From: Sphingobacterium sp.
Lineage (GTDB): Bacteria; Bacteroidota; Bacteroidia; Sphingobacteriales; Sphingobacteriaceae
Assembly (NCBI GenBank): GCA_030146225.1
Contig: JASLCA010000287.1
Location: 1-37,859, forward strand
DNA: 37,859 bases
Reading direction: 5' to 3'
The position numbers and the translations under genes were made by a program. Numbering within the stretch: the first letter of the stretch is position 1; each line of letters begins with the position of its first letter. The notes below the pieces were generated by a model that saw only the letters and a list, made by a program, of their open reading frames with translations, had not been told where the DNA came from and searched no databases. Below, in pieces: positions 888 to 15,186 of the stretch.

Positions 888-1880
888 ATGAAAAAGATAC
901 TAGCTCATTTACTTGAGTACAAATCCTTTAGCAAGGAAGAAGCCTATTCAATATTGACAAATATTGCGCTAGGAAAATATGATGCACATCAGATAGCGGC
1001 CTTTATGACCATCTATGGCATGCGCAGCATACGTGTAGAAGAGCTGAGTGGCTTTCGGGATGCAATGTACGATCTATGCCTAAAGGTAGACTTTCCAGGC
1101 TATGAACTTATAGACCTATGTGGAACTGGAGGGGATGGTAAAAACACCTTTAATATTTCAACCTTAGCCTCCTTTATAGTGGCTGCAGCAGGCTATCCAG
1201 TTGCTAAACATGGAAACGTAGGGGTATCCTCGGGCTGCGGCTCCTCAAATCTTATGGAGTTCTTGGGCTATAAATTTACCAATGATAAGGAGCAACTGAC
1301 GCGTCAATTAGAAACGGCGAATATATGTTTCTTACATGCGCCCCTTTTCCACCCTGCGATGAAGACAGTGGCCCCTATCCGTAGGGCGCTAGGCGTTAAG
1401 ACCTTCTTTAATATGCTAGGCCCGCTTACCAACCCAGCCAATCCAAAATATCAAGCTGTAGGTGTTTTTAGCTTGGAGCTCGCACGTCTTTATAGCTACT
1501 TGTACCAACAGACAGATAAACAGTATAGCATTATCCACAGCTTAGATGGCTATGACGAAATCTCTTTAACTGGGGATTTCAAGGTGATCAACAACCTTGG
1601 CGAAAATGCCTTTGATGTCATGTCCTTGGGCTTTGAGAAGAATCTATTGGCCAGCAGCATTAGTGGCGGAGAAACAGTGGAAGAGGCTGCGGCAATCTTT
1701 ACCAGCATTCTAAAAGGGAAGGGTACGGAAGCCCAAAATGCGGTGGTACTCAGCAACGCAGCATTTGCTATCAATACCATAAGCCCGCAAAAAAGCTTTG
1801 GAGACTGCTACTACGAAGCAGAAGCAGCATTGATGAATGCTAAGGCACAGCAGGCCTTCGCTAAGCTTATCGCCAACTAA
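888..1880 (+). CDS. trpD: Anthranilate phosphoribosyltransferase
   Basis: DLCGTGGDGKNTFNIST, KHGN and DGYDE motifs. Confidence 0.97.
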   Translation: MKKILAHLLEYKSFSKEEAYSILTNIALGKYDAHQIAAFMTIYGMRSIRVEELSGFRDAMYDLCLKVDFPGYELIDLCGTGGDGKNTFNISTLASFIVAAAGYPVAKHGNVGVSSGCGSSNLMEFLGYKFTNDKEQLTRQLETANICFLHAPLFHPAMKTVAPIRRALGVKTFFNMLGPLTNPANPKYQAVGVFSLELARLYSYLYQQTDKQYSIIHSLDGYDEISLTGDFKVINNLGENAFDVMSLGFEKNLLASSISGGETVEEAAAIFTSILKGKGTEAQNAVVLSNAAFAINTISPQKSFGDCYYEAEAALMNAKAQQAFAKLIAN

Positions 1881-5445: not shown

Positions 5446-8100
5446 ATGAAATCATTTTTTAAGGGGATAATAACCATCCTATTTATAAGCCTATACAGCG
5501 TATCTTTTGCGCAGAAGGCAAGCAGCATTAGCTTTGAAGTTGCAGGAAGCTGTGGCATGTGTAAACAAAGAATCGAAAAGGCAGCCAAAATCAAAGGTGT
5601 ATCCGAGGCAAGCTGGGATGTTGCCAGCCATAAGGCTACCGTAAAGTTTGACAGCAAAACAACCAATGCACAAGCTATTAAGCAGGCAATTGCAGATGCT
5701 GGTCATGATACTGATGAAATAAAAGCTAAGGATGAAGTCTATGAAAAACTGCATGAATGCTGTTTATATGATCGCCTAGATGGCGCTAAGGCTGATGCCC
5801 ATGCGGGACATAATCATAAAGCCGGTGAAGGCCATGACGATCATGCCGGACATAACCATAAAGCAGGCGAAGGCCATGACGATCACGATGATCATGAAGA
5901 CCATGGACACGAGCATATTATTCGTGGAGTCGTTGTAGAGGAAAATGCAAAAGGTGAATTAACGCCGATCCCAGGGGTCAATGTATACTGGTTAGAAAAC
6001 CCAAAAAATCAATTGCAGACAAATGCCAATGGCGTCTTTGATATCAAACATGAAAAAGGCAACAAGAAGCTAATCGTGAGCTTTGTGGGTATGAAATCCG
6101 ACACCGTAACCGTAAAAAACTTGCATGAAGTATTGGTAATCCAAGCCAAGAACAATGTTTTGGAATCTATTGTCGTATCTAGAAAACAACGTTCAAATTA
6201 TATCTCAAGCCTTACGCCTAACCGCGTAGAGACAATTACGGCTAAGGAACTTTTCAAAGCAGCTTGTTGTGATTTAAGTGAGAGTTTTGAGACCAATGCA
6301 TCTGTAGATGTGGTCAGCAGTGATGCCGTTACGGGATCAAAACAGGTACAACTATTAGGTCTAAGTGGTATTTACACCCAGCTAACGGTGGAAAACCTAC
6401 CTGGTCCAAGAGGATTTGCATCCCCACTAGGCTTAAACAGCATGGCTGGTCCATGGATTGAGTCCATTCAGATTTCAAAGGGTATGGGCTCTGTAGCCAA
6501 TGGCTTTGAGAGTATGTCAGGACAGATCAACGTGGAATTGAAAAAGCCACATAATACCGATAGACTACACTTTAATGCCTATGCAAATAATATGGGCAGA
6601 ACAGACATTAACCTAAGCGCTGCACAGAAAATCAATGACAAATGGTCGGTGGGCTTATTGCTACATGATAATTTTATGTACAATAAAACCATGAACTTCA
6701 GTGACAACGGATTTAGAGATATGCCTGTAGGTAATATTTTCTCAGGTATTAATAGATGGCATTATGAAGATGGCAAGGGATTAATCGCACAATTTGGGGT
6801 TAAATACCTTAATGATGATCGTACAGGAGGCCAGATTGACTTCAATGAAAAGACCGATAAGCTTACGACAAATAAATATGGATTAGGCTTTGACATTGAG
6901 CGCATTGAAGGCTTTGCAAAGATTGGCTATGTATTCCCGAATCATAAATTGCGTAGCATAGGCTTACAGCTATCTGCTTCCCACTACAAACAAGACAGTT
7001 ACTTTGGTCTAACCACCTACAACAACAAGCAAAATAGTGCTTATGCAAACTTTTTATACCAAGACGTATTAGGAAGTGTGAAACATAAGTACCGTGCGGG
7101 CTTATCGATCTCGCATGATAATATGAATGAGTCTATACTTCTTAACCAATTTGATAGAAAAGAGACTGTTTCAGGAGCATTTGTGGAATACACCTATGCC
7201 CCTACTGAAAACCTTGATGCAGTCTTAGGCTTACGTCAGGATTACAATAGTATCTATGGCTGGTTCACTACACCTAGAGCAGTAATCAGGTATGCACCTA
7301 CTGCTACCACAACCTTACGCCTAAGCTCTGGCCGTGGTCAACGTACCGCAAACATCTTTGCCGAAAACTTGGGTATTTTTGCATCCAGCAGACAAATTGA
7401 TTACACGAAATTAAGCAATACAAATGGTACAGCCTATGGCTTAGCGCCAGAGGTATCGTGGAATACCGGCTTTACCGTTGACCAAAACTTCCAATTATTC
7501 GGAAGAGAGTCGGGGATTTCATTAGAATTATTCCACAACAGCTTCTCCAACCAAGTTGTTGTAGACTTTGAAAATCCAAGAGAGGTTTCCTTCTACAACC
7601 TAGATGGCAAGTCCTTTTCCAACAGTATGCAGGCGGAGTTTCGCTTTATGCCAATACAGCATTTCGAAGCACGTATGGCATACCGTTATTTAGATGTGCA
7701 GACCGATTATCAAGCAGGTAGATTGGAGAAGCCATTAACAGCAAAACACAGAGGTTTTGTCAACTTAGCATACAACCTACATAGCGGCTGGAGCTTTGAT
7801 TACACCTTTAACGTAGTCGGCAAGAAACGTCTTCCATCTACAGCAAGCAACCCAGTTGAATACCAATTAGGCGAGTACTCAGACTCCTATGTTACAATGA
7901 ATGCACAGGTTACCAAAAGCTTTGGAGCGGACAAGAATTTCAGTGTATATATAGGTGGTGAGAACTTAACAAACTTCTACCAGAAGAACCCTATCCTAGC
8001 ATTTGAGGAGCCTTTTGGCAACCATTTTGACACCAACTTATTATGGGGTCCAGTTGCAGGTCGCTTATTCTACACAGGGGTACGCTATACCATTAAATAA
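5446..8100 (+). CDS. TonB-dependent receptor with N-terminal heavy-metal-associated domain and His-rich linker
   Basis: Signal peptide, GSCGMC HMA motif, HECC, His/Asp linker, plug with AACCDLSESFETN, barrel ending YTGVRYTIK. Confidence 0.9.
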   Translation: MKSFFKGIITILFISLYSVSFAQKASSISFEVAGSCGMCKQRIEKAAKIKGVSEASWDVASHKATVKFDSKTTNAQAIKQAIADAGHDTDEIKAKDEVYEKLHECCLYDRLDGAKADAHAGHNHKAGEGHDDHAGHNHKAGEGHDDHDDHEDHGHEHIIRGVVVEENAKGELTPIPGVNVYWLENPKNQLQTNANGVFDIKHEKGNKKLIVSFVGMKSDTVTVKNLHEVLVIQAKNNVLESIVVSRKQRSNYISSLTPNRVETITAKELFKAACCDLSESFETNASVDVVSSDAVTGSKQVQLLGLSGIYTQLTVENLPGPRGFASPLGLNSMAGPWIESIQISKGMGSVANGFESMSGQINVELKKPHNTDRLHFNAYANNMGRTDINLSAAQKINDKWSVGLLLHDNFMYNKTMNFSDNGFRDMPVGNIFSGINRWHYEDGKGLIAQFGVKYLNDDRTGGQIDFNEKTDKLTTNKYGLGFDIERIEGFAKIGYVFPNHKLRSIGLQLSASHYKQDSYFGLTTYNNKQNSAYANFLYQDVLGSVKHKYRAGLSISHDNMNESILLNQFDRKETVSGAFVEYTYAPTENLDAVLGLRQDYNSIYGWFTTPRAVIRYAPTATTTLRLSSGRGQRTANIFAENLGIFASSRQIDYTKLSNTNGTAYGLAPEVSWNTGFTVDQNFQLFGRESGISLELFHNSFSNQVVVDFENPREVSFYNLDGKSFSNSMQAEFRFMPIQHFEARMAYRYLDVQTDYQAGRLEKPLTAKHRGFVNLAYNLHSGWSFDYTFNVVGKKRLPSTASNPVEYQLGEYSDSYVTMNAQVTKSFGADKNFSVYIGGENLTNFYQKNPILAFEEPFGNHFDTNLLWGPVAGRLFYTGVRYTIK
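5800..5883 (+). repeat. 2 x 42-bp in-frame tandem repeat (HAGHNHKAGEGHDD)
   Basis: 5800-5841 and 5842-5883 encode identical peptides with synonymous differences only. Confidence 0.9.
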
Positions 8101-8215: not shown

Positions 8216-8246
8216 TTGTCAACACAACTTCCACTTAGTAGTTTTG
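8216..8246 (+). promoter_or_regulatory. Bacteroidota sigma70 promoter (-33/-7)
   Basis: TTG at 8216-8218, 20-nt spacer, TAGTTTTG at 8239-8246; ATG 6 nt downstream. Confidence 0.75.
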
Positions 8247-8252
8247 CGGCAG

Positions 8253-8627
8253 ATGGCATTTAAACTGGTTCACTTTTTTGTATTGCTTTGTTACATTAAT
8301 ATCCTCGCTTATGAAGTGGGGGGCAACAGCTATGTGGAAAATCGGACAAGCATATTAAATGGGGAATCCATCTTGGAATTTGTACTCGATGATGTCTTAG
8401 ACCTTCCTATTAGTAAATCTGCTTCTGATGTGGAGATTCTCTATGAAGAGTATAGAACCACGCAACAACAGGCCTACCTACTGCCTGCTATCTTAGTGGT
8501 ACTTTTCAGCTTTGGTCTTGCCATTGCTCCTATTGTAGAGCGCATAAAACACCCCCTGTATACCGGTAAAAAAAGACAGATAATACCAGGGTATTATGCA
8601 TTCCTCTACCGTTACAAACCCTTCTAA
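8253..8627 (+). CDS. Small two-hydrophobic-segment protein upstream of the RND operon
   Basis: Start moved to ATG 8253 (the TTG at 8244 lies in the promoter). Hydrophobic N-terminus, acidic middle, second TM, C-terminal PGYYAFLYRYKPF. Confidence 0.7.
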   Translation: MAFKLVHFFVLLCYINILAYEVGGNSYVENRTSILNGESILEFVLDDVLDLPISKSASDVEILYEEYRTTQQQAYLLPAILVVLFSFGLAIAPIVERIKHPLYTGKKRQIIPGYYAFLYRYKPF

Positions 8628-8884
8628 TTTAATTCTTCCTAATATTTTCCTAATTCATAGGATTCCTTTGCTGCAGAAGTAATTTCTAGGCTATGGCCCT
8701 TTGCTGTTCGGACTTTGGTTATCCAGGCAATACTGCCTGCTGTCGCTTTAATTAAAAGCCAGCGGGATAATAGTTTCCTCATTAACCTTTCAAGCAACAG
8801 CGACTAAGCCAGCGGGTGACAAATGCCTTGTCTAGAAAATCTTCCAGTGGTTTATTATTCAATCATTTTTTTAAATTTCATCAC

Positions 8885-9991
8885 ATGAAATCTATTTCAT
8901 TTGCATCCTCCCTATTGGGAGTCCTGCTTCTTGCGGGCGCTTGCGTAAGTAAAAGCTCGGAAAACAATCGTGAGCCTGCCAAGCAAGTTCCGGTAGGCAC
9001 CCTTACACGTATGGACACCATTATTTACAAGGAATATATCGCTGACATTCAGGCTACAAAAAATGTAGAATTAAGGTCCAGACTCAGCGGATTTTTAGAA
9101 AAAATATATGTAGATGAGGGCGCACTCGTCAGCAATGGGCAAGTCCTTTTCAAGCTTAATGACAGTGAGTACAAGGCTGATTTCGCCCAAGCGGAAGCCG
9201 TTCTAAATACCGCAATTGCCGAAGCAAAGAAGGTGGAGCTGGAGAAAGAAAGAACCAAAAGACTGGTTAGCAAAAATATTGTCTCAGAAACCGAAAGCGA
9301 ATTAATAAGTGTTCAGCATAAGGCCGCCTTGTCCAAGGTAGAGGAAGCTAGGGCAGCATTAAACCTAGCCCGTACAAAGCTCTCACAGACTTTAATTCGC
9401 GCTCCCTTTAGTGGACGTATAGACCGCATCTTGCTTAAAGAAGGTTCTCTACTAGCTGAGGGCTCACTTTTAACCAATATCTCGGATCTAAAAAGCCTGC
9501 ATGTATACTTTGATATTTCCGAATCTGAATACTTAGAAATGTCCAAAGATGCCAGCTTCAACGGAACCACAATTAAGGATCCTGTAAATTTAATCTTAGC
9601 CAATGGGCAAGCCTACCCGCATCAAGGGCAGGCACAGATTGTAGAAAGTGAATTTGAACCCAACACGGGCTCAATTTCCCTAAGAGCGAAATTTCCTAAT
9701 GCCGAAGGCTTGCTAAAACATGGTGCTTCAGGTCGTATTGGGGTCCCAATGTCTAGTGGCGAAAACTTGTTTATTCACCAAAAATCCGTATTGGAAATAC
9801 AAGACAAGACCTATGCCTACCTGCTTTTGGACAATGGCACGGTAAAGATGCATCCTTTTAAGGCTGGCGCTCGCGTAGGACATTTCTACATTGTAGAGGA
9901 TGGCTTAGACGAAAATCAAAAGATCGTATTTGAGGGTGTTCAAGCATTACGCGACGGCATGCAGGTGCAGGCAATAACGCAAAAGAAATAA
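8885..9991 (+). CDS. RND efflux periplasmic adaptor (MFP), lipoprotein
   Basis: Start moved to ATG 8885; LAGAC lipobox; VELRSRLSGFLEKIYVDEGALV and IRAPFSGRI lipoyl/hairpin motifs. Confidence 0.93.
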   Translation: MKSISFASSLLGVLLLAGACVSKSSENNREPAKQVPVGTLTRMDTIIYKEYIADIQATKNVELRSRLSGFLEKIYVDEGALVSNGQVLFKLNDSEYKADFAQAEAVLNTAIAEAKKVELEKERTKRLVSKNIVSETESELISVQHKAALSKVEEARAALNLARTKLSQTLIRAPFSGRIDRILLKEGSLLAEGSLLTNISDLKSLHVYFDISESEYLEMSKDASFNGTTIKDPVNLILANGQAYPHQGQAQIVESEFEPNTGSISLRAKFPNAEGLLKHGASGRIGVPMSSGENLFIHQKSVLEIQDKTYAYLLLDNGTVKMHPFKAGARVGHFYIVEDGLDENQKIVFEGVQALRDGMQVQAITQKK

Positions 9992-10013: not shown

Positions 10014-13000
10014 ATGTTTGAAACATTTATAAAACGACCGATATTATCCTTGGTCATATCGATTTTCATTACCCTCTTGGGACTGTTGGCCTTGTTTACC
10101 TTGCCCATCACGCAGTTCCCAGACATTGTCCCGCCATCGGTGGTCGTTACGGCCAACTATACGGGAGCCAATGCAGAGGTAAGTACCAATGCCGTAGCCA
10201 TCCCGCTTGAAAAGGCGATTAATGGCGTGGCCGGCATGACCGCTATGAATACGGTTACCACCAACAATGGCACCACCCTAATCCAAGTCTCTTTTAAGGT
10301 AGGTGTTGACCCCGATATTGCCGCAGTGAATGTGCAAAACAGGGTTACCACGGTCTTGGACGAATTGCCTGAGGAGGTAATTAGAGCTGGAGTAACCACT
10401 GAAAAAGAGGTTAACAGCATGCTGATGTACCTGAATATATACACCGATGATCAGACAGCCGACGAACGCTTTATCTACAACTTTACGGACATTAATATCC
10501 TAAAAGAGCTGAAGCGAATTGAAGGTGTGGGCTTTGCCCAAATTATGGGGATGCGGGATTATGCGATGCGGGTATGGTTAAAGCCAGACCGTTTAGCGGC
10601 CTATCAGATTTCCACTGATGAGGTTATTGAATCCCTACGCAGACAAAATATTGAAGCTGCCCCCGGGCAAACGGGAATAAGCTCGGATAAAATGGTCAAT
10701 ATGCAGCAGTACGTACTGCGCTATCCAGGTAAATTCTCAGAGCCAGAAGAATATGAAAATGTACCCATACGGGCTAATGTAGATGGATCCATCATTCGAA
10801 TTAAGGATATTGCCGAGGTAGAATTTGGTTCCTTAGATTACGAGATGGTATCCAAGACTGATGGTCGTCCATCGGCTTCCATTATGCTGAAACAATTGCC
10901 AGGATCCAATGCCCAAGAGGTTATTCAGCGGGTTAAAGACCGCATGGACGAACTCAAAGGCAGTAGCTTCCCAGCCGGCATGACCTATACCATGGGCTAT
11001 GATGTTTCTAGATTTTTAGATGCTTCAATCTCCAGCGTATTAATCACGCTTATCGAAGCCTTTATCCTAGTATTCTTGGTGGTCTTTATCTTCCTACAAG
11101 ATTTCCGAGCCACCTTAATTCCGATTTTGGCCGTACCGGTATCCCTAATTGGAGCACTCTTCTTTATGCAGATGATGGGCTTTTCCATCAACCTGCTTAC
11201 ATTATTTGCACTCGTGCTAGCGATAGGGATTGTGGTCGACAACGGAATTGTCGTCGTCGAGGCCGTCTATGCCAAGATGGAGGATGAACACCTCCCGCCT
11301 ATGGAAGCTACCTTAGCCGCAATTAAAGAAGTAGGAGGTGCGGTTGTGGCCATTACCTTAGTGATGTCCGCCGTATTTATTCCCGTCGCCTTTCTCTCGG
11401 GACCTGTGGGCATATTCTATAGACAGTTCTCCTTGACACTGGCCTCAGCAATTGTGATTTCAGGCATTAATGCCTTGACCTTAACGCCTGCATTATGTGC
11501 CTTAATCTTAAGATCACCACATGATCGCAAGCCTTCAAACAACTGGTTAGACCGCTTCTTTAAGGGCTTTAACAGGCGTTATGACAAGCTGGCAAACAAT
11601 TACAAGTCCCTCCTATCCCGAATAGCTGGACGTCGCGTTCTAACGCTACTCTTATTAGCTATTTTCTTTGTGGCAACCTGGGGAACAAGTGCCATCCTCC
11701 CTTCAGGCTTTATTCCTACAGAAGATCAAGGGATGGTATACTTAAGTGTAACCACGCCTCCAGGCGCAACTGTGGATCGTACCGAACGTATACTCGATGA
11801 AGTGGATGTGATCGCTAGAGATTTAAAAGCCGTAGAAACGGTATCCACCCTAGCAGGTTACAGCATCTTAACGGAGGTTTCAGGGGCCTCCTATGGTATG
11901 GGAATGATTAACTTAAAGACATGGAAAGATCGCTCCCAGTCTGTTGATGACATAATCAATGAACTTCGTGCCAAGACTGCACATATTGCCGATGCGGACA
12001 TTGAGTTTTTCCCTCCACCTACCGTTCCTGGATTTGGAAATGCGGCCGGCTTTGAGCTCCGTCTACTAGACCGCAGTGGTAGTGAAGATCTAAACCAGAC
12101 CGCCGCTGTGCTAGACAAATTTATAGAGGATCTAGCAGCTTCCGAGTCCATTGAGTCCGCAAGCTCCAGCTTTGATGTTAGTTTCCCACAGTATATGTTG
12201 GAGGTTGACTATGATTTGGCGGCTAAGAAAGGCATATCGGTAGAGAATGCCATGAATACCCTACAGACCTTAATGGGGAGCTTTTATGCGACCAACTTTA
12301 TCCGGTATGGACAGATGTACAAGGTTATGGTGCAGGCGGATCCGCAGTACCGTAAAAAGCCTGAGGATGTACTAAACCTTTTTGTGAAAACAAAAACTGG
12401 AGAGATGGTGCCTTACTCTGCATTTGTTAAGATGAATAGAATCTACGGTCCTGAACAGATTACCCGTTACAATATGTTTACCTCAGCGATGATCAATGGT
12501 CAGCCTGCGCCAGGTTACAGTACAGGGCAAGCCATTGAAGCCGTGCAAGCCTTGGCCGCAAAACTCCCACAAGGCTATAGCATTGAATGGGCCGGGATGA
12601 CCCGCGAGCAGGTAATTTCAGGCGATCAAGCCTTGTATATCTTTGCGCTCTGTCTGGTCTTTGTGTACCTCTTGCTATCAGCACAGTACGAAAGCTTCCT
12701 CCTCCCCTTGCCGGTAATCCTATGTTTGCCAGCAGGTATCTTTGGAGCCTTCTTATTCCTCAAACTCTTTGGCTTGGAGAATAATATATATGCACAAGTC
12801 GCACTGGTCATGTTGATAGGCTTATTAGGAAAGAACGCCATCCTTATTGTGGAATATGCTGTCCTCAAACAAAAGCAAGGTATGGATATCGTACAAGCGG
12901 CGATAGAAGGTGCTTATGCCCGTTTACGACCTATATTAATGACATCCTTTGCCTTTATTGCGGGTCTAATCCCCTTGATGATGGCTAGCGGTGCGGGAGC

Positions 13001-14567
13001 TATTGGCAACCGTACTATTGGTACCGCCTCAGTGGGTGGGATGTTAATTGGGACGATCTTAGGTGTTATTATTATTCCAGGATTGTACGTGCTCTTCTCT
13101 AAAAGAAAGAAACGCGTACCTAAAATACCATTAGCGATACTGGCGCTCTTTTTCTTTGCCATGTCCTGTACAGTGCCAAAACATATGCAGACTACAGCTC
13201 CTCAGGAGCTACCTGCTGAATTTGGCATGAATATCCCTAACGGTACAGACAGCTTAAGCCTCGCTAGCGAAAAGTGGCAGGAGGTCTTTAAAGATGCCCA
13301 GCTGAAACAACTTATTGATACTGCTTTGGCCTACAATTATGACCTCAAGCAAGCCATACAGCGTATAGAGCTTGCGCAGGCAAGCTTTAAACAACGCAAG
13401 GCGGCCCTGCTCCCGAGCTTGGATTTAGCTGCTGAAGCAGGCCTTCAGAAATATGGCTTTTATACAGAATCGGGCATTGGGAATTACGACTCCAACTTCT
13501 CGGAAAACCTGCAAGCGGATGAAAAGATTCCAGGACCTGCTATACCAGACTATTTTGTAGGCCTTAGAGCATCCTGGGAAATAGATATTTGGGGTAAAAT
13601 TAAAGCCCAAAAGCATGCAGCATTTAATAACCTATTGGCTAGCAATGAAGCAAGGCGCTTAATAGAGACGGAGCTAATTTCAAATATTGCCACCGCTTAC
13701 TATGAATTGATTAGTCTGGATGGCAAAATCCAAGTCTTTAACAGCAATATAGCGCTTAACGAAAGAGCTTTGGAAATTATCGAGTTGCAAAAGGAGGCTG
13801 GTCGCTCCTCCTTATTAGCCGTTGAGCAGTTTAAAGCGTTTTTAGCACATGCAAAGGCGCAACGCGCACATACGAAACAGGAGATTAGCCTATTGGAGAA
13901 TCATATCAACTACTTGTCTGGTCGATTTAACAAGCCTATTCTGCGTGCTACGCAACAGCTAACACAACTCAACCTCTTTGACAGCCTGCAAGTTGGCACG
14001 CCTATTCAATTGCTTGGCCAACGCCCAGATATTCGGGAGGCAACCTTTCAATTGATTGCTGCCGAACAGGAGATAAAGTCTGCAAGAGCAGCCTTCTTGC
14101 CAGCAATTGTCTTGTCGCCCTATATAGGGCTGCAATCCTTTAGCTTAAATAAGCTGGTTAATGTAGAAAAATCCCTCAGCTATGGCTTGATGGGCGGATT
14201 GTCAGCTCCACTCCTAAATCAGCAGGTGCTGAAAGCACAGTATGCAAGCTACAAAGCCAATTATGGCATCAACTTCTTGGAATATGAAAAACGCGTCTTA
14301 AATGCCTACAATGAGGTCTCTAGTGCAGTACAGATGCAAAGCCATATCCAAGAAAGACAGCAGTATATTCAGGAGCAGGTACTTGCCTTAAAGGCAGCAG
14401 TAGATGCGGCAGGGGAGCTATTTATAGCAGGACGCGTCTCCTACCTAGATATTATTACAGCTCAAAAGGATGCATTGGAAGCCCAAATTGATGAAGTGGA
14501 CATACAAAAAGAAAGAATTATAAATCAAATCCTTATCTACAAAGCCTTAGGCGGTGGATGGAATTAA
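10014..14567 (+). CDS. HAE1-family RND permease fused to a TolC/NodT-type outer membrane factor
   Basis: Residues ~1-1030 are AcrB/MexB-like (FIKRP, LPITQFPDIVPP, GIVVDNGIVVVE, KNAILIVE, RLRPILMTS); residues ~1052-1517 are OMF-like (SWEIDIWGK, QRPDIREA, YKALGGGW); no stop between them. Confidence 0.92.
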   Translation: MFETFIKRPILSLVISIFITLLGLLALFTLPITQFPDIVPPSVVVTANYTGANAEVSTNAVAIPLEKAINGVAGMTAMNTVTTNNGTTLIQVSFKVGVDPDIAAVNVQNRVTTVLDELPEEVIRAGVTTEKEVNSMLMYLNIYTDDQTADERFIYNFTDINILKELKRIEGVGFAQIMGMRDYAMRVWLKPDRLAAYQISTDEVIESLRRQNIEAAPGQTGISSDKMVNMQQYVLRYPGKFSEPEEYENVPIRANVDGSIIRIKDIAEVEFGSLDYEMVSKTDGRPSASIMLKQLPGSNAQEVIQRVKDRMDELKGSSFPAGMTYTMGYDVSRFLDASISSVLITLIEAFILVFLVVFIFLQDFRATLIPILAVPVSLIGALFFMQMMGFSINLLTLFALVLAIGIVVDNGIVVVEAVYAKMEDEHLPPMEATLAAIKEVGGAVVAITLVMSAVFIPVAFLSGPVGIFYRQFSLTLASAIVISGINALTLTPALCALILRSPHDRKPSNNWLDRFFKGFNRRYDKLANNYKSLLSRIAGRRVLTLLLLAIFFVATWGTSAILPSGFIPTEDQGMVYLSVTTPPGATVDRTERILDEVDVIARDLKAVETVSTLAGYSILTEVSGASYGMGMINLKTWKDRSQSVDDIINELRAKTAHIADADIEFFPPPTVPGFGNAAGFELRLLDRSGSEDLNQTAAVLDKFIEDLAASESIESASSSFDVSFPQYMLEVDYDLAAKKGISVENAMNTLQTLMGSFYATNFIRYGQMYKVMVQADPQYRKKPEDVLNLFVKTKTGEMVPYSAFVKMNRIYGPEQITRYNMFTSAMINGQPAPGYSTGQAIEAVQALAAKLPQGYSIEWAGMTREQVISGDQALYIFALCLVFVYLLLSAQYESFLLPLPVILCLPAGIFGAFLFLKLFGLENNIYAQVALVMLIGLLGKNAILIVEYAVLKQKQGMDIVQAAIEGAYARLRPILMTSFAFIAGLIPLMMASGAGAIGNRTIGTASVGGMLIGTILGVIIIPGLYVLFSKRKKRVPKIPLAILALFFFAMSCTVPKHMQTTAPQELPAEFGMNIPNGTDSLSLASEKWQEVFKDAQLKQLIDTALAYNYDLKQAIQRIELAQASFKQRKAALLPSLDLAAEAGLQKYGFYTESGIGNYDSNFSENLQADEKIPGPAIPDYFVGLRASWEIDIWGKIKAQKHAAFNNLLASNEARRLIETELISNIATAYYELISLDGKIQVFNSNIALNERALEIIELQKEAGRSSLLAVEQFKAFLAHAKAQRAHTKQEISLLENHINYLSGRFNKPILRATQQLTQLNLFDSLQVGTPIQLLGQRPDIREATFQLIAAEQEIKSARAAFLPAIVLSPYIGLQSFSLNKLVNVEKSLSYGLMGGLSAPLLNQQVLKAQYASYKANYGINFLEYEKRVLNAYNEVSSAVQMQSHIQERQQYIQEQVLALKAAVDAAGELFIAGRVSYLDIITAQKDALEAQIDEVDIQKERIINQILIYKALGGGWN

Positions 14568-14598: not shown

Positions 14599-15186
14599 TT
14601 ATACGAATATTGCTTTTAATTCTTGATACAAGCGAGCTGTAGGCAAGCCTATAACATTTTCATATGAGCCATTAATTGACGAAACCCCGATCCATCCTAT
14701 CCATTCTTGAATGCCATAGGAGCCTGCCTTATCCAAAGGCATAAACTTGTCCACATAATACCTTAGCTCGGCATCAGACAATGCCGCAAAATGTACCTCT
14801 GTAACCTCCACAAAACTGTATTGCTTTTCTTTATACTGCAAGGCCACAGCAGTCAGCACCTGATGTGAGCGGCCTTGAAGCGTCCGAAGGGTCGCTAGCG
14901 CTTCCTCCTTATTCTGAGGCTTGCCCAAGATATTTCCTGCATGCAGCACGATGGTGTCCGCAGTAATAACCAAGCTGTCCGCAAAGGCTACAGGATCAAA
15001 AGCTTTCAACTTCTGGAAGGCAATATGAGCCACAATAGCCGCAGGAGCTAAGTGCGCATCAAAGGATTCATCCGTCTCTTTAACGATTACCTTACTTTGA
15101 ATGCCCATCTTATCCAACAAGTCCTTCCGACGCGGGGACTGAGATCCCAGCACAACCGGAATATCCTTTAACAAATCCAATAACAT
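14599..15186 (-). CDS. maf: Maf-family nucleoside triphosphate pyrophosphatase
   Basis: LGSQSPRR, ADTIV, LGKP, DKAGSYGIQ, GSYENVIGLP. Confidence 0.93.
   Translation of the reverse strand: MLLDLLKDIPVVLGSQSPRRKDLLDKMGIQSKVIVKETDESFDAHLAPAAIVAHIAFQKLKAFDPVAFADSLVITADTIVLHAGNILGKPQNKEEALATLRTLQGRSHQVLTAVALQYKEKQYSFVEVTEVHFAALSDAELRYYVDKFMPLDKAGSYGIQEWIGWIGVSSINGSYENVIGLPTARLYQELKAIFV

Follow-up and report, generated by a model that had tools for sequence, protein, structure and literature searches.

One Reading Frame for an RND Permease and an Outer-Membrane Factor in Sphingobacterium, with a Conserved Lipoprotein-Type Signal at the Junction

A 37,859-nucleotide stretch of DNA from Sphingobacterium sp. 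(GenBank assembly GCA_030146225.1, contig JASLCA010000287.1, positions 1 to 37,859 of the forward strand; referred to below as the window) contains a gene in which a resistance–nodulation–division (RND) efflux permease and an outer-membrane factor (OMF) share one uninterrupted reading frame (10014..14567, plus strand; 1517 codons plus stop). Here, we report that this fusion is real, conserved, and recurrent, and that a lipoprotein-type signal between the two parts is conserved beyond chance. From these comparisons we hold with moderate confidence that the gene is a selected fusion encoding an efflux polyprotein, from which the OMF would be freed at the internal lipoprotein signal by Lgt and LspA; the cleavage itself we infer. 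An earlier examination of the bare letters of the window (the sequence-only reading) had described a permease and an OMF in one open reading frame and had offered three mechanisms for such a gene: a polyprotein cut internally, a tethered single-chain pump, and internal initiation of the OMF. The first of these gains ground in our analysis, the tethered pump is disfavored by an invariant cysteine and the absence of a spacer, and internal initiation is weakened by a natural variant and by orthologues that have no suitable start codon.

Results and Discussion

Both Halves of the Fused Protein Are Complete

The first 1028 residues of the encoded protein (10014..13097, plus strand) form a full-length HAE1-type RND permease similar to AcrB, MexB, and CmeB. 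Residues 1–1028 match the Pfam profile ACR_tran from position 1 to 1020 of 1021 with 999.7 bits, and residues 1–1032 match NCBIfam TIGR00915 (HAE1) with 1051.3 bits, above the family cut-off of 940.35. Alignment with the solved 12-helix permeases CmeB, MexB, and AcrB is collinear from query residue 4 to residues 1028–1034 (chains of 1035–1069 residues, 725–800 bits).

The mature OMF corresponds to residues 1052–1517 (466 residues; 13167..14564, plus strand) and belongs to the NodT/OprM type. NCBIfam TIGR01845 (NodT OMF) covers residues 1075–1515 with profile positions 37–460 of 460 at 260 bits (cut-off 210.05), and the Pfam profile OEP matches two stretches in the C-terminal third of the protein with 119 bits. 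The best match of the OMF part among solved structures is OprM (154 bits, query 19–466 to chain 24–451), followed by SilC and CusC.

Past the last permease helix the frame runs on without a stop, as read from the DNA between 12900 and 13320 and its translation (...IPGLYVLFSKRKKRVPKIPLAILALFFFAMS-C-TVPK...). The junction can be parsed as ...IPGLYVLFS-KRKKRVPK-IPLAILALFFFAMS-C-TVPKHMQ.... In the canonical RND operon with three polypeptides, the OMF is a separate gene; here, no stop codon stands between permease and OMF. The claim that both proteins are encoded in one open reading frame is therefore borne out by the stop-free junction and by the profiles of both domains.

The Fusion Is Conserved and Not an Artefact

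The source genome is a fragmented draft of 402 contigs and 82.6% completeness, which lends some weight to the explanation that a stop codon was lost through a sequencing or assembly error, or that the fusion is recent and non-functional. For comparison, contigs of four public runs, each belonging to a different study (X1, X2, X3, and X7), were aligned to the window over positions 12600–13700. Runs X1, X2, and X7, which come from separate studies, each provide a single contig across this region with 2–7 substitutions and zero indels, and X3 spans it by overlapping pieces. The X2 contig is near-identical to the window, and this run may be the source sample. One variant, 13091 G>C, turns a GTG codon into GTC and keeps the encoded valine. 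It occurs in the X1 contig, which differs at 4 of 1101 bases, and again in an X3 contig of 61 bases with a depth of 2.4. Another variant, 13237 C>A in run X7, exchanges Pro for His in the OMF tail. Stop-creating variants are absent from the contigs of the other runs over positions 12600–13700.

A database search with residues 960–1260 of the fused protein (the junction query) returned 120 best hits, every one of which contains both PF00873 and PF02321. Most of these proteins are 1491–1534 residues long; nine are shorter (869–1375 residues) and include fragments on contigs of 4–18 kb. The named sources among the 120 are Sphingobacterium and Pedobacter species, some of them represented by contigs of 4–6 Mb. 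The named hits are entered in public annotation under nothing but "efflux RND transporter permease subunit", so any count of outer-membrane channels or efflux operons that relies on gene names will overlook the OMF within them.

A survey of 151 genomes from the same family, the source genome included, used the best 150 of 1024 matches, and the resulting counts are lower bounds. The fusion was verified in at least 27 of the 151 genomes. Among the matches listed, 23 genomes contain a stop-free match over the whole 300-residue junction query with 53–100% identity, and a further genome (G125) is fused by way of a long insert. We refer to the 24 fused orthologous loci as family A. Family B is a second, more distant fusion family with five loci in five genomes, which share about 40% identity over the junction query and about 31% over the OMF part. 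Inspection of the DNA showed that the frame is uninterrupted between the locus edge and the end of the OMF in all 24 family-A loci and all 5 family-B loci.

In light of these data, we consider an artefact or a decaying gene very improbable. The junction is the same and free of indels in contigs from separate studies, the fusion recurs in complete or near-complete named genomes as well as in the surveyed family, both halves exceed curated family cut-offs over their full length, and the frame remains open within the fused clade although OMF identity falls to about 45%. The sequence-only reading had named two ways in which its view could fail. One, an assembly error that removed a stop, is contradicted by the separate runs X1, X2, and X7 and by the 24 orthologues, where the junction is intact and in frame. 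The other, that close relatives all have two genes, is contradicted by the nearest relatives, which are fused and not split.

A phylum-wide sample of 401 genomes, 8 of them from the same family, gave stop-free junction-spanning matches at E ≤ 1e-40 solely in the source genome and one congener. The OMF part alone produced 20,911 hits at E ≤ 0.001 in a library of representatives at 50% identity. The best 150 of these include two of the fused type (a protein of 1521 residues and a fragment of 1066 residues), and nearly all others are separate OMF proteins with lengths near 480 residues. Fused genes are thus in the minority and cluster in a small number of clades. Open-frame lengths of 1550–1624 residues had suggested a third class of fusions. 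This class was rejected, as the lengths read through a stop codon; the loci L004, L044, and L050–L058 are separate genes bounded by stops.

The Junction Carries the Features of a Lipoprotein Signal

The segment between the last permease helix and the OMF consists of a basic n-region, KRKKRVPK (residues 1030–1037; 13101..13124, plus strand), which also serves as the short cytoplasmic loop after the twelfth transmembrane helix (TM12), and a hydrophobic h-region, IPLAILALFFFAMS (14 residues, 1038–1051; 13125..13166, plus strand). The h-region ends in the lipobox A-M-S-C (13158..13169, plus strand), in which Cys1052 is encoded by TGT at 13167–13169 and the predicted LspA cut lies between Ser1051 and Cys1052. 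DNA, translation, and the TIGR01845 match agree on this order of basic region, hydrophobic region, Cys1052, and full OMF, exactly as had been proposed.

Prolipoproteins are characterized by a positive n-region, a short h-region, and a lipobox with a small residue at position −1 and cysteine at +1. All of these features are present at the junction, and the lipobox cysteine directly precedes the mature OMF. What departs from the pattern is the placement: the signal begins at residue 1030 of 1517, past a complete permease, and not at the N-terminus. The fused protein is therefore not an ordinary prolipoprotein, even though its OMF part may be processed like one. Both enzymes that such processing would call for are encoded in the source genome, LspA on contig C141 (PF01252, 108.4 bits) and Lgt on contig C39 (PF01790, 221.9 bits).

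The conservation of this signal exceeds chance. Database homologues provide 97 distinct junction sequences, in which the lipobox cysteine is invariant (97/97), as it is in the 24 genomic orthologues. Position −1 is occupied by Ser, Ala, or Gly in all 97, and position −3 is Ile, Val, Phe, or Leu in 91. The uncharged stretch ahead of the cysteine measures 13–21 residues with a median of 14, and the 15 residues that precede the hydrophobic stretch carry a net charge between +2 and +8 (median +6). Signal peptides typically have a hydrophobic stretch of around 14 residues, which is less than a stable membrane helix usually has. The five family-B loci all retain a lipobox of their own (LYSC, AYAC, LSAC, or AYSC), and the locus L014 has SSGC.

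The linker from the PGL motif to the cysteine varies in sequence and in length (25–63 residues), and it is in frame at 24 of 24 family-A loci. An extreme case is the fused locus L031 in genome G125, where about 30 acidic and Gly-rich residues have been added to the linker (...AIPEASADDDNGSGAGGSGPDIDPDHGPVAP...) and the KKK motif, the hydrophobic stretch, and the SSC lipobox are intact. The length of the cytoplasmic loop is evidently free to vary, to judge from this locus.

A separate observation concerns the residues that follow the cysteine (13170–13181, residues 1053–1056). The fused family favors C-S-V-P-K at this place, with Ser at +1 in 65, Val at +2 in 68, Pro at +3 in 85, and Lys at +4 in 79 of the 97 junctions. 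These residues could constitute a sorting or recognition motif.

Origin of the Fused Layout

In more distant relatives, permease and OMF are split. The ATG of the OMF lies 0–11 nucleotides past the RND stop, and the OMF has an ordinary N-terminal lipoprotein signal. The RND proteins of these split relatives end in a hydrophilic tail of 20–30 residues that is mostly gone from the fused forms. At locus L030, a TAA stop is directly followed by the in-frame ATG of the OMF. The same abutment, here TAG-ATG, is found at L004, which belongs to another RND operon of the source genome (contig C80, about 1479–1482, minus strand). Locus L044 has an in-frame OMF ATG 9 nucleotides past the permease stop. 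Where stop and start abut directly in frame, as in L004 and L030, one base change in the stop codon would join the two genes.

A quick maximum-likelihood tree of the OMFs, midpoint-rooted and built from 42 of 52 loci with 10 split rows left out, places the fused OMFs in two clades of 24 rows (SH-aLRT 100) and 5 rows (SH-aLRT 99), with split genes between them. Neither clade contains a split row in this 42-locus tree. The fusion therefore arose at least twice, which is the minimum number of state changes for two fused clades parted by split genes. In the explanation we favor, the fused gene came about when the stop that parted an RND gene from a tightly abutting OMF gene was lost, and the N-terminal lipoprotein signal of the OMF was made internal in this way.

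How the Fused Protein May Mature

The reading we favor starts with insertion of the 12-helix permease by Sec, which would leave its C-terminus in the cytoplasm. The internal signal would then serve as one further pass through the membrane and bring the OMF part to the periplasmic side. Lgt would lipidate Cys1052, after which LspA would cut between Ser1051 and Cys1052, and the freed OMF would travel to the outer membrane as an ordinary lipoprotein. That LspA indeed cuts a lipoprotein signal after 12 transmembrane helices to release a lipidated OMF, with the cleaved signal peptide retained by the permease for good as a 13th membrane segment at its C-terminus, appears to us only slightly the likelier course. 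Pump and channel protomers would in this way of necessity be produced 1:1 and in the same place, along with the adaptor, whose gene lies immediately upstream. Three facts lead us to favor a polyprotein: the lipobox with its invariant cysteine is kept in two independent fusion clades, the frame is open over a length-variable linker in 24 of 24 orthologous loci, and Lgt and LspA are both encoded in the source genome.

The same topology would permit a tethered single-chain pump. TM12 ends in the cytoplasm, as deduced from the alignments with solved chains, and one further crossing would bring the OMF into the periplasm. In this case, the hydrophobic stretch would stay in the membrane permanently as a 13th helix, with the OMF held covalently by the permease and spanning the periplasm. 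Permanently tethered periplasmic domains are found in ABC importers, which offers this arrangement some precedent. A mere anchor would, however, have no need of a cysteine or of a small residue at −1; these two features are nonetheless invariant in the 97 junctions, and a lipobox is also kept in the second fusion clade. The hydrophobic stretch, with its median of 14 residues, is short for such a role.

The tail of the OMF also speaks against a tether because it contains no added spacer. From the lipobox cysteine to the first conserved OMF helix, the fused proteins have 44–50 residues (median 46; measured for 21 of 24 family-A loci, with coverage of 1 of 5 loci in family B), and the split relatives have 43–50 residues (median 46; 13 of 23 loci measured). 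This tail aligns residue for residue with that of lipidated OprM. A segment of about 45 residues, normally packed against the barrel, would have to bridge the distance from the inner membrane, and this geometry looks strained. Since an anchor needs no lipobox and the OMF tail has not been lengthened relative to split relatives, we regard a permanent tether as unlikely.

The other alternative is a nested gene: internal initiation would supply most of the OMF in the form of an ordinary lipoprotein precursor, and the long product would be a by-product. Two candidate in-frame starts, TTG at 13083 (Leu1024) and GTG at 13089–13091 (Val1026), lie at the end of TM12 (13083..13091, plus strand), 28 and 26 codons ahead of the cysteine. 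The GTG had been pointed out by the sequence-only reading and is indeed there. Initiation at either codon would give a canonical N-terminal lipoprotein signal, and in the split ancestors, with their gaps of 0–11 nucleotides, the OMF was probably translated by tightly coupled re-initiation. In the stretch that runs from the PGL motif to the last charged residue, an ATG is found in 6, a GTG in 17, and a TTG in 7 of the 24 orthologous loci, so that 19 of the 24 have at least one of these codons in the equivalent stretch.

Several observations make such a nested gene quite improbable. Five of the 24 orthologues (L009, L012, L016, L021, and L025) have no ATG, GTG, or TTG from the PGL motif to the last charged residue. 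The positions of the candidate starts vary among loci, with ATG limited to the six loci mentioned above. The variant 13091 G>C abolishes the GTG in a contig that is otherwise almost the same as the window. If the OMF were translated on its own, stops after TM12 would be harmless, and yet 24 of 24 loci and two independent clades have stayed open across an indel-rich linker. Promoter-like signals do not rise above chance, a result that says little either way. Sigma-70-like sites number 13 where 13.0 are expected. The Bacteroidota −7 motif TANNTTTG has 30 matches where 39.5 are expected, and none of these matches falls within about 340 bases ahead of the candidate starts at the junction.

Cleavage of a polyprotein would account for the features that weaken these two alternatives. 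Some points weigh against the polyprotein that we favor. At least one in-frame ATG, GTG, or TTG just ahead of the n-region in 19 of 24 orthologues means that an additional, internally initiated OMF is possible in these, and in the window TTG 13083 remains. The polyprotein route would also leave the permease with a signal peptide at its C-terminus. The two-clade tree, which suggests independent origins, results from a quick, midpoint-rooted search that omits ten split rows. A literature search, which did not cover subscription journals, found no documented action of Lgt and LspA on a signal that follows 12 helices. More generally, the full-text literature within its reach (including passages of PMC8277102, PMC12724326, PMC6316836, PMC2448597, PMC4446572, and bioRxiv 10.1101/031039, with most subscription journals outside it) gave no description of a natural RND–OMF fusion or of an internal signal cut by LspA.

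Comparison with a Second Fusion and with Known Systems

Fusions of CusA/CzcA-type permeases with TolC-type channels had been cited as a familiar Bacteroidota arrangement, and the source genome itself has one. This 1452-residue protein is encoded on contig C195 (locus L070, 232..4590, plus strand) and matches TIGR00914 with 1193 bits and a TolC-type OEP profile with 121.6 bits. Like the HAE1 fusion in the window, it unites a full RND permease, a basic stretch, a hydrophobic stretch, and a full OMF in one frame. Unlike the HAE1 fusion, it belongs to the heavy-metal RND family (TIGR00914), and its signal-peptide-like junction (...FQGGNTPRKSTPMKAITTLLVLILSFFGFAQRSEAQTV...) has no lipobox cysteine. 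The sequence ...FGFAQRSEA/QT... looks like a signal-peptidase-I site. Maturation as a polyprotein would fit this second fusion as well, in that each fused OMF keeps the type of signal expected of it as a separate protein.

By homology, the fused system is functionally a tripartite pump like MexAB-OprM of Pseudomonas aeruginosa. It shares with this pump, and with CmeABC and AcrAB-TolC, the three components in the order adaptor, permease, and OMF. The permease aligns over its full length with MexB, AcrB, and CmeB, the adaptor matches TIGR01730, and OprM, itself a lipoprotein, is the closest solved OMF, with a tail of equal length after the lipidated cysteine. In contrast to MexAB-OprM, permease and OMF share one frame here, and the OMF signal is internal and follows 12 helices. 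The split RND–OMF operons of the same family (for example, L030 and L032–L035) contain orthologous or closely paralogous genes with the same kind of OMF lipoprotein signal. They differ from the fused gene by a stop that separates the two genes, an OMF with its own ATG, and the hydrophilic tail of the RND protein.

The nearest precedent for the proposed maturation is the cytochrome b/c1 polyprotein FbcH of Bradyrhizobium japonicum. In this system, a single precursor contains a membrane protein and an exported partner, which come apart at an internal signal peptide, and their stoichiometry is thereby fixed. The internal signal of FbcH is reported to be cut by signal peptidase I, and both products remain at the inner membrane. 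In contrast to this example, the signal described here is of the Lgt/LspA type, and the released part would be bound for the outer membrane.

Operon, Neighboring Genes, and the Proton Relay of the Permease

A gene for a periplasmic adaptor (membrane fusion protein; 8816..9991, plus strand) ends 22 nucleotides ahead of the fused frame in the same operon. The adaptor matches the Pfam profiles HlyD_D23 and HlyD_3 as well as TIGR01730 (RND_mfp) with 228 bits (cut-off 94.9). Its true start is probably the ATG at 8885, which is followed by a lipoprotein-type signal closing in ...LLAGAC. The next gene downstream of the fused frame is a Maf gene (14599..15186) on the opposite strand. Since this neighbor points the other way, the efflux operon contains no separate OMF gene, and the fused frame provides the only OMF of the operon.

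Just upstream of the efflux operon lies a gene for a TonB-dependent receptor (5446..8100, plus strand) with Plug, beta-barrel, and CarboxypepD_reg-like domains and an N-terminal heavy-metal-associated (HMA) domain. No Pfam profile matches, at E ≤ 0.001, the open reading frame of 127 codons (8244..8627, plus strand) that lies between this gene and the adaptor gene; this frame might encode a small regulator, or it may not be a gene.

The fourth transmembrane helix (TM4) of the permease part contains the motif VVDNG (V-D-N at 11232–11240, in the region of residues 407–409). Asparagine thus stands in place of the second proton-relay aspartate of AcrB, whose relay residues are Asp407 and Asp408 in TM4, Lys940 in TM10, and Arg971 in TM11. 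The lysine of TM10 (KNAIL) and the arginine of TM11 (RLRPILMT) are kept. The Asp-Asn pair is found in 109 of 113 long homologues and in all five split relatives checked, and VDN also occurs in the PDB AcrB chain 4u8y. Four paralogues in the source genome have Asp-Asp instead, as do all three members of the second fusion family that were checked. Judged from this distribution, the Asp-Asn pair is a trait of the clade that is independent of the fusion.

Conclusions

If the OMF is indeed released at the internal lipoprotein signal, this family would use a route of outer-membrane protein biogenesis for which the literature we searched holds no description. The substrate range of Lgt and LspA would then extend to signals that are not at the N-terminus, and the 1:1 ratio of pump to channel would be set at the site of synthesis. 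Such a route would have originated two or more times in this family alone, with what looks like a signal-peptidase-I version in the same genome, and it would provide a natural system in which to study how a pump and its channel are matched in number and place.

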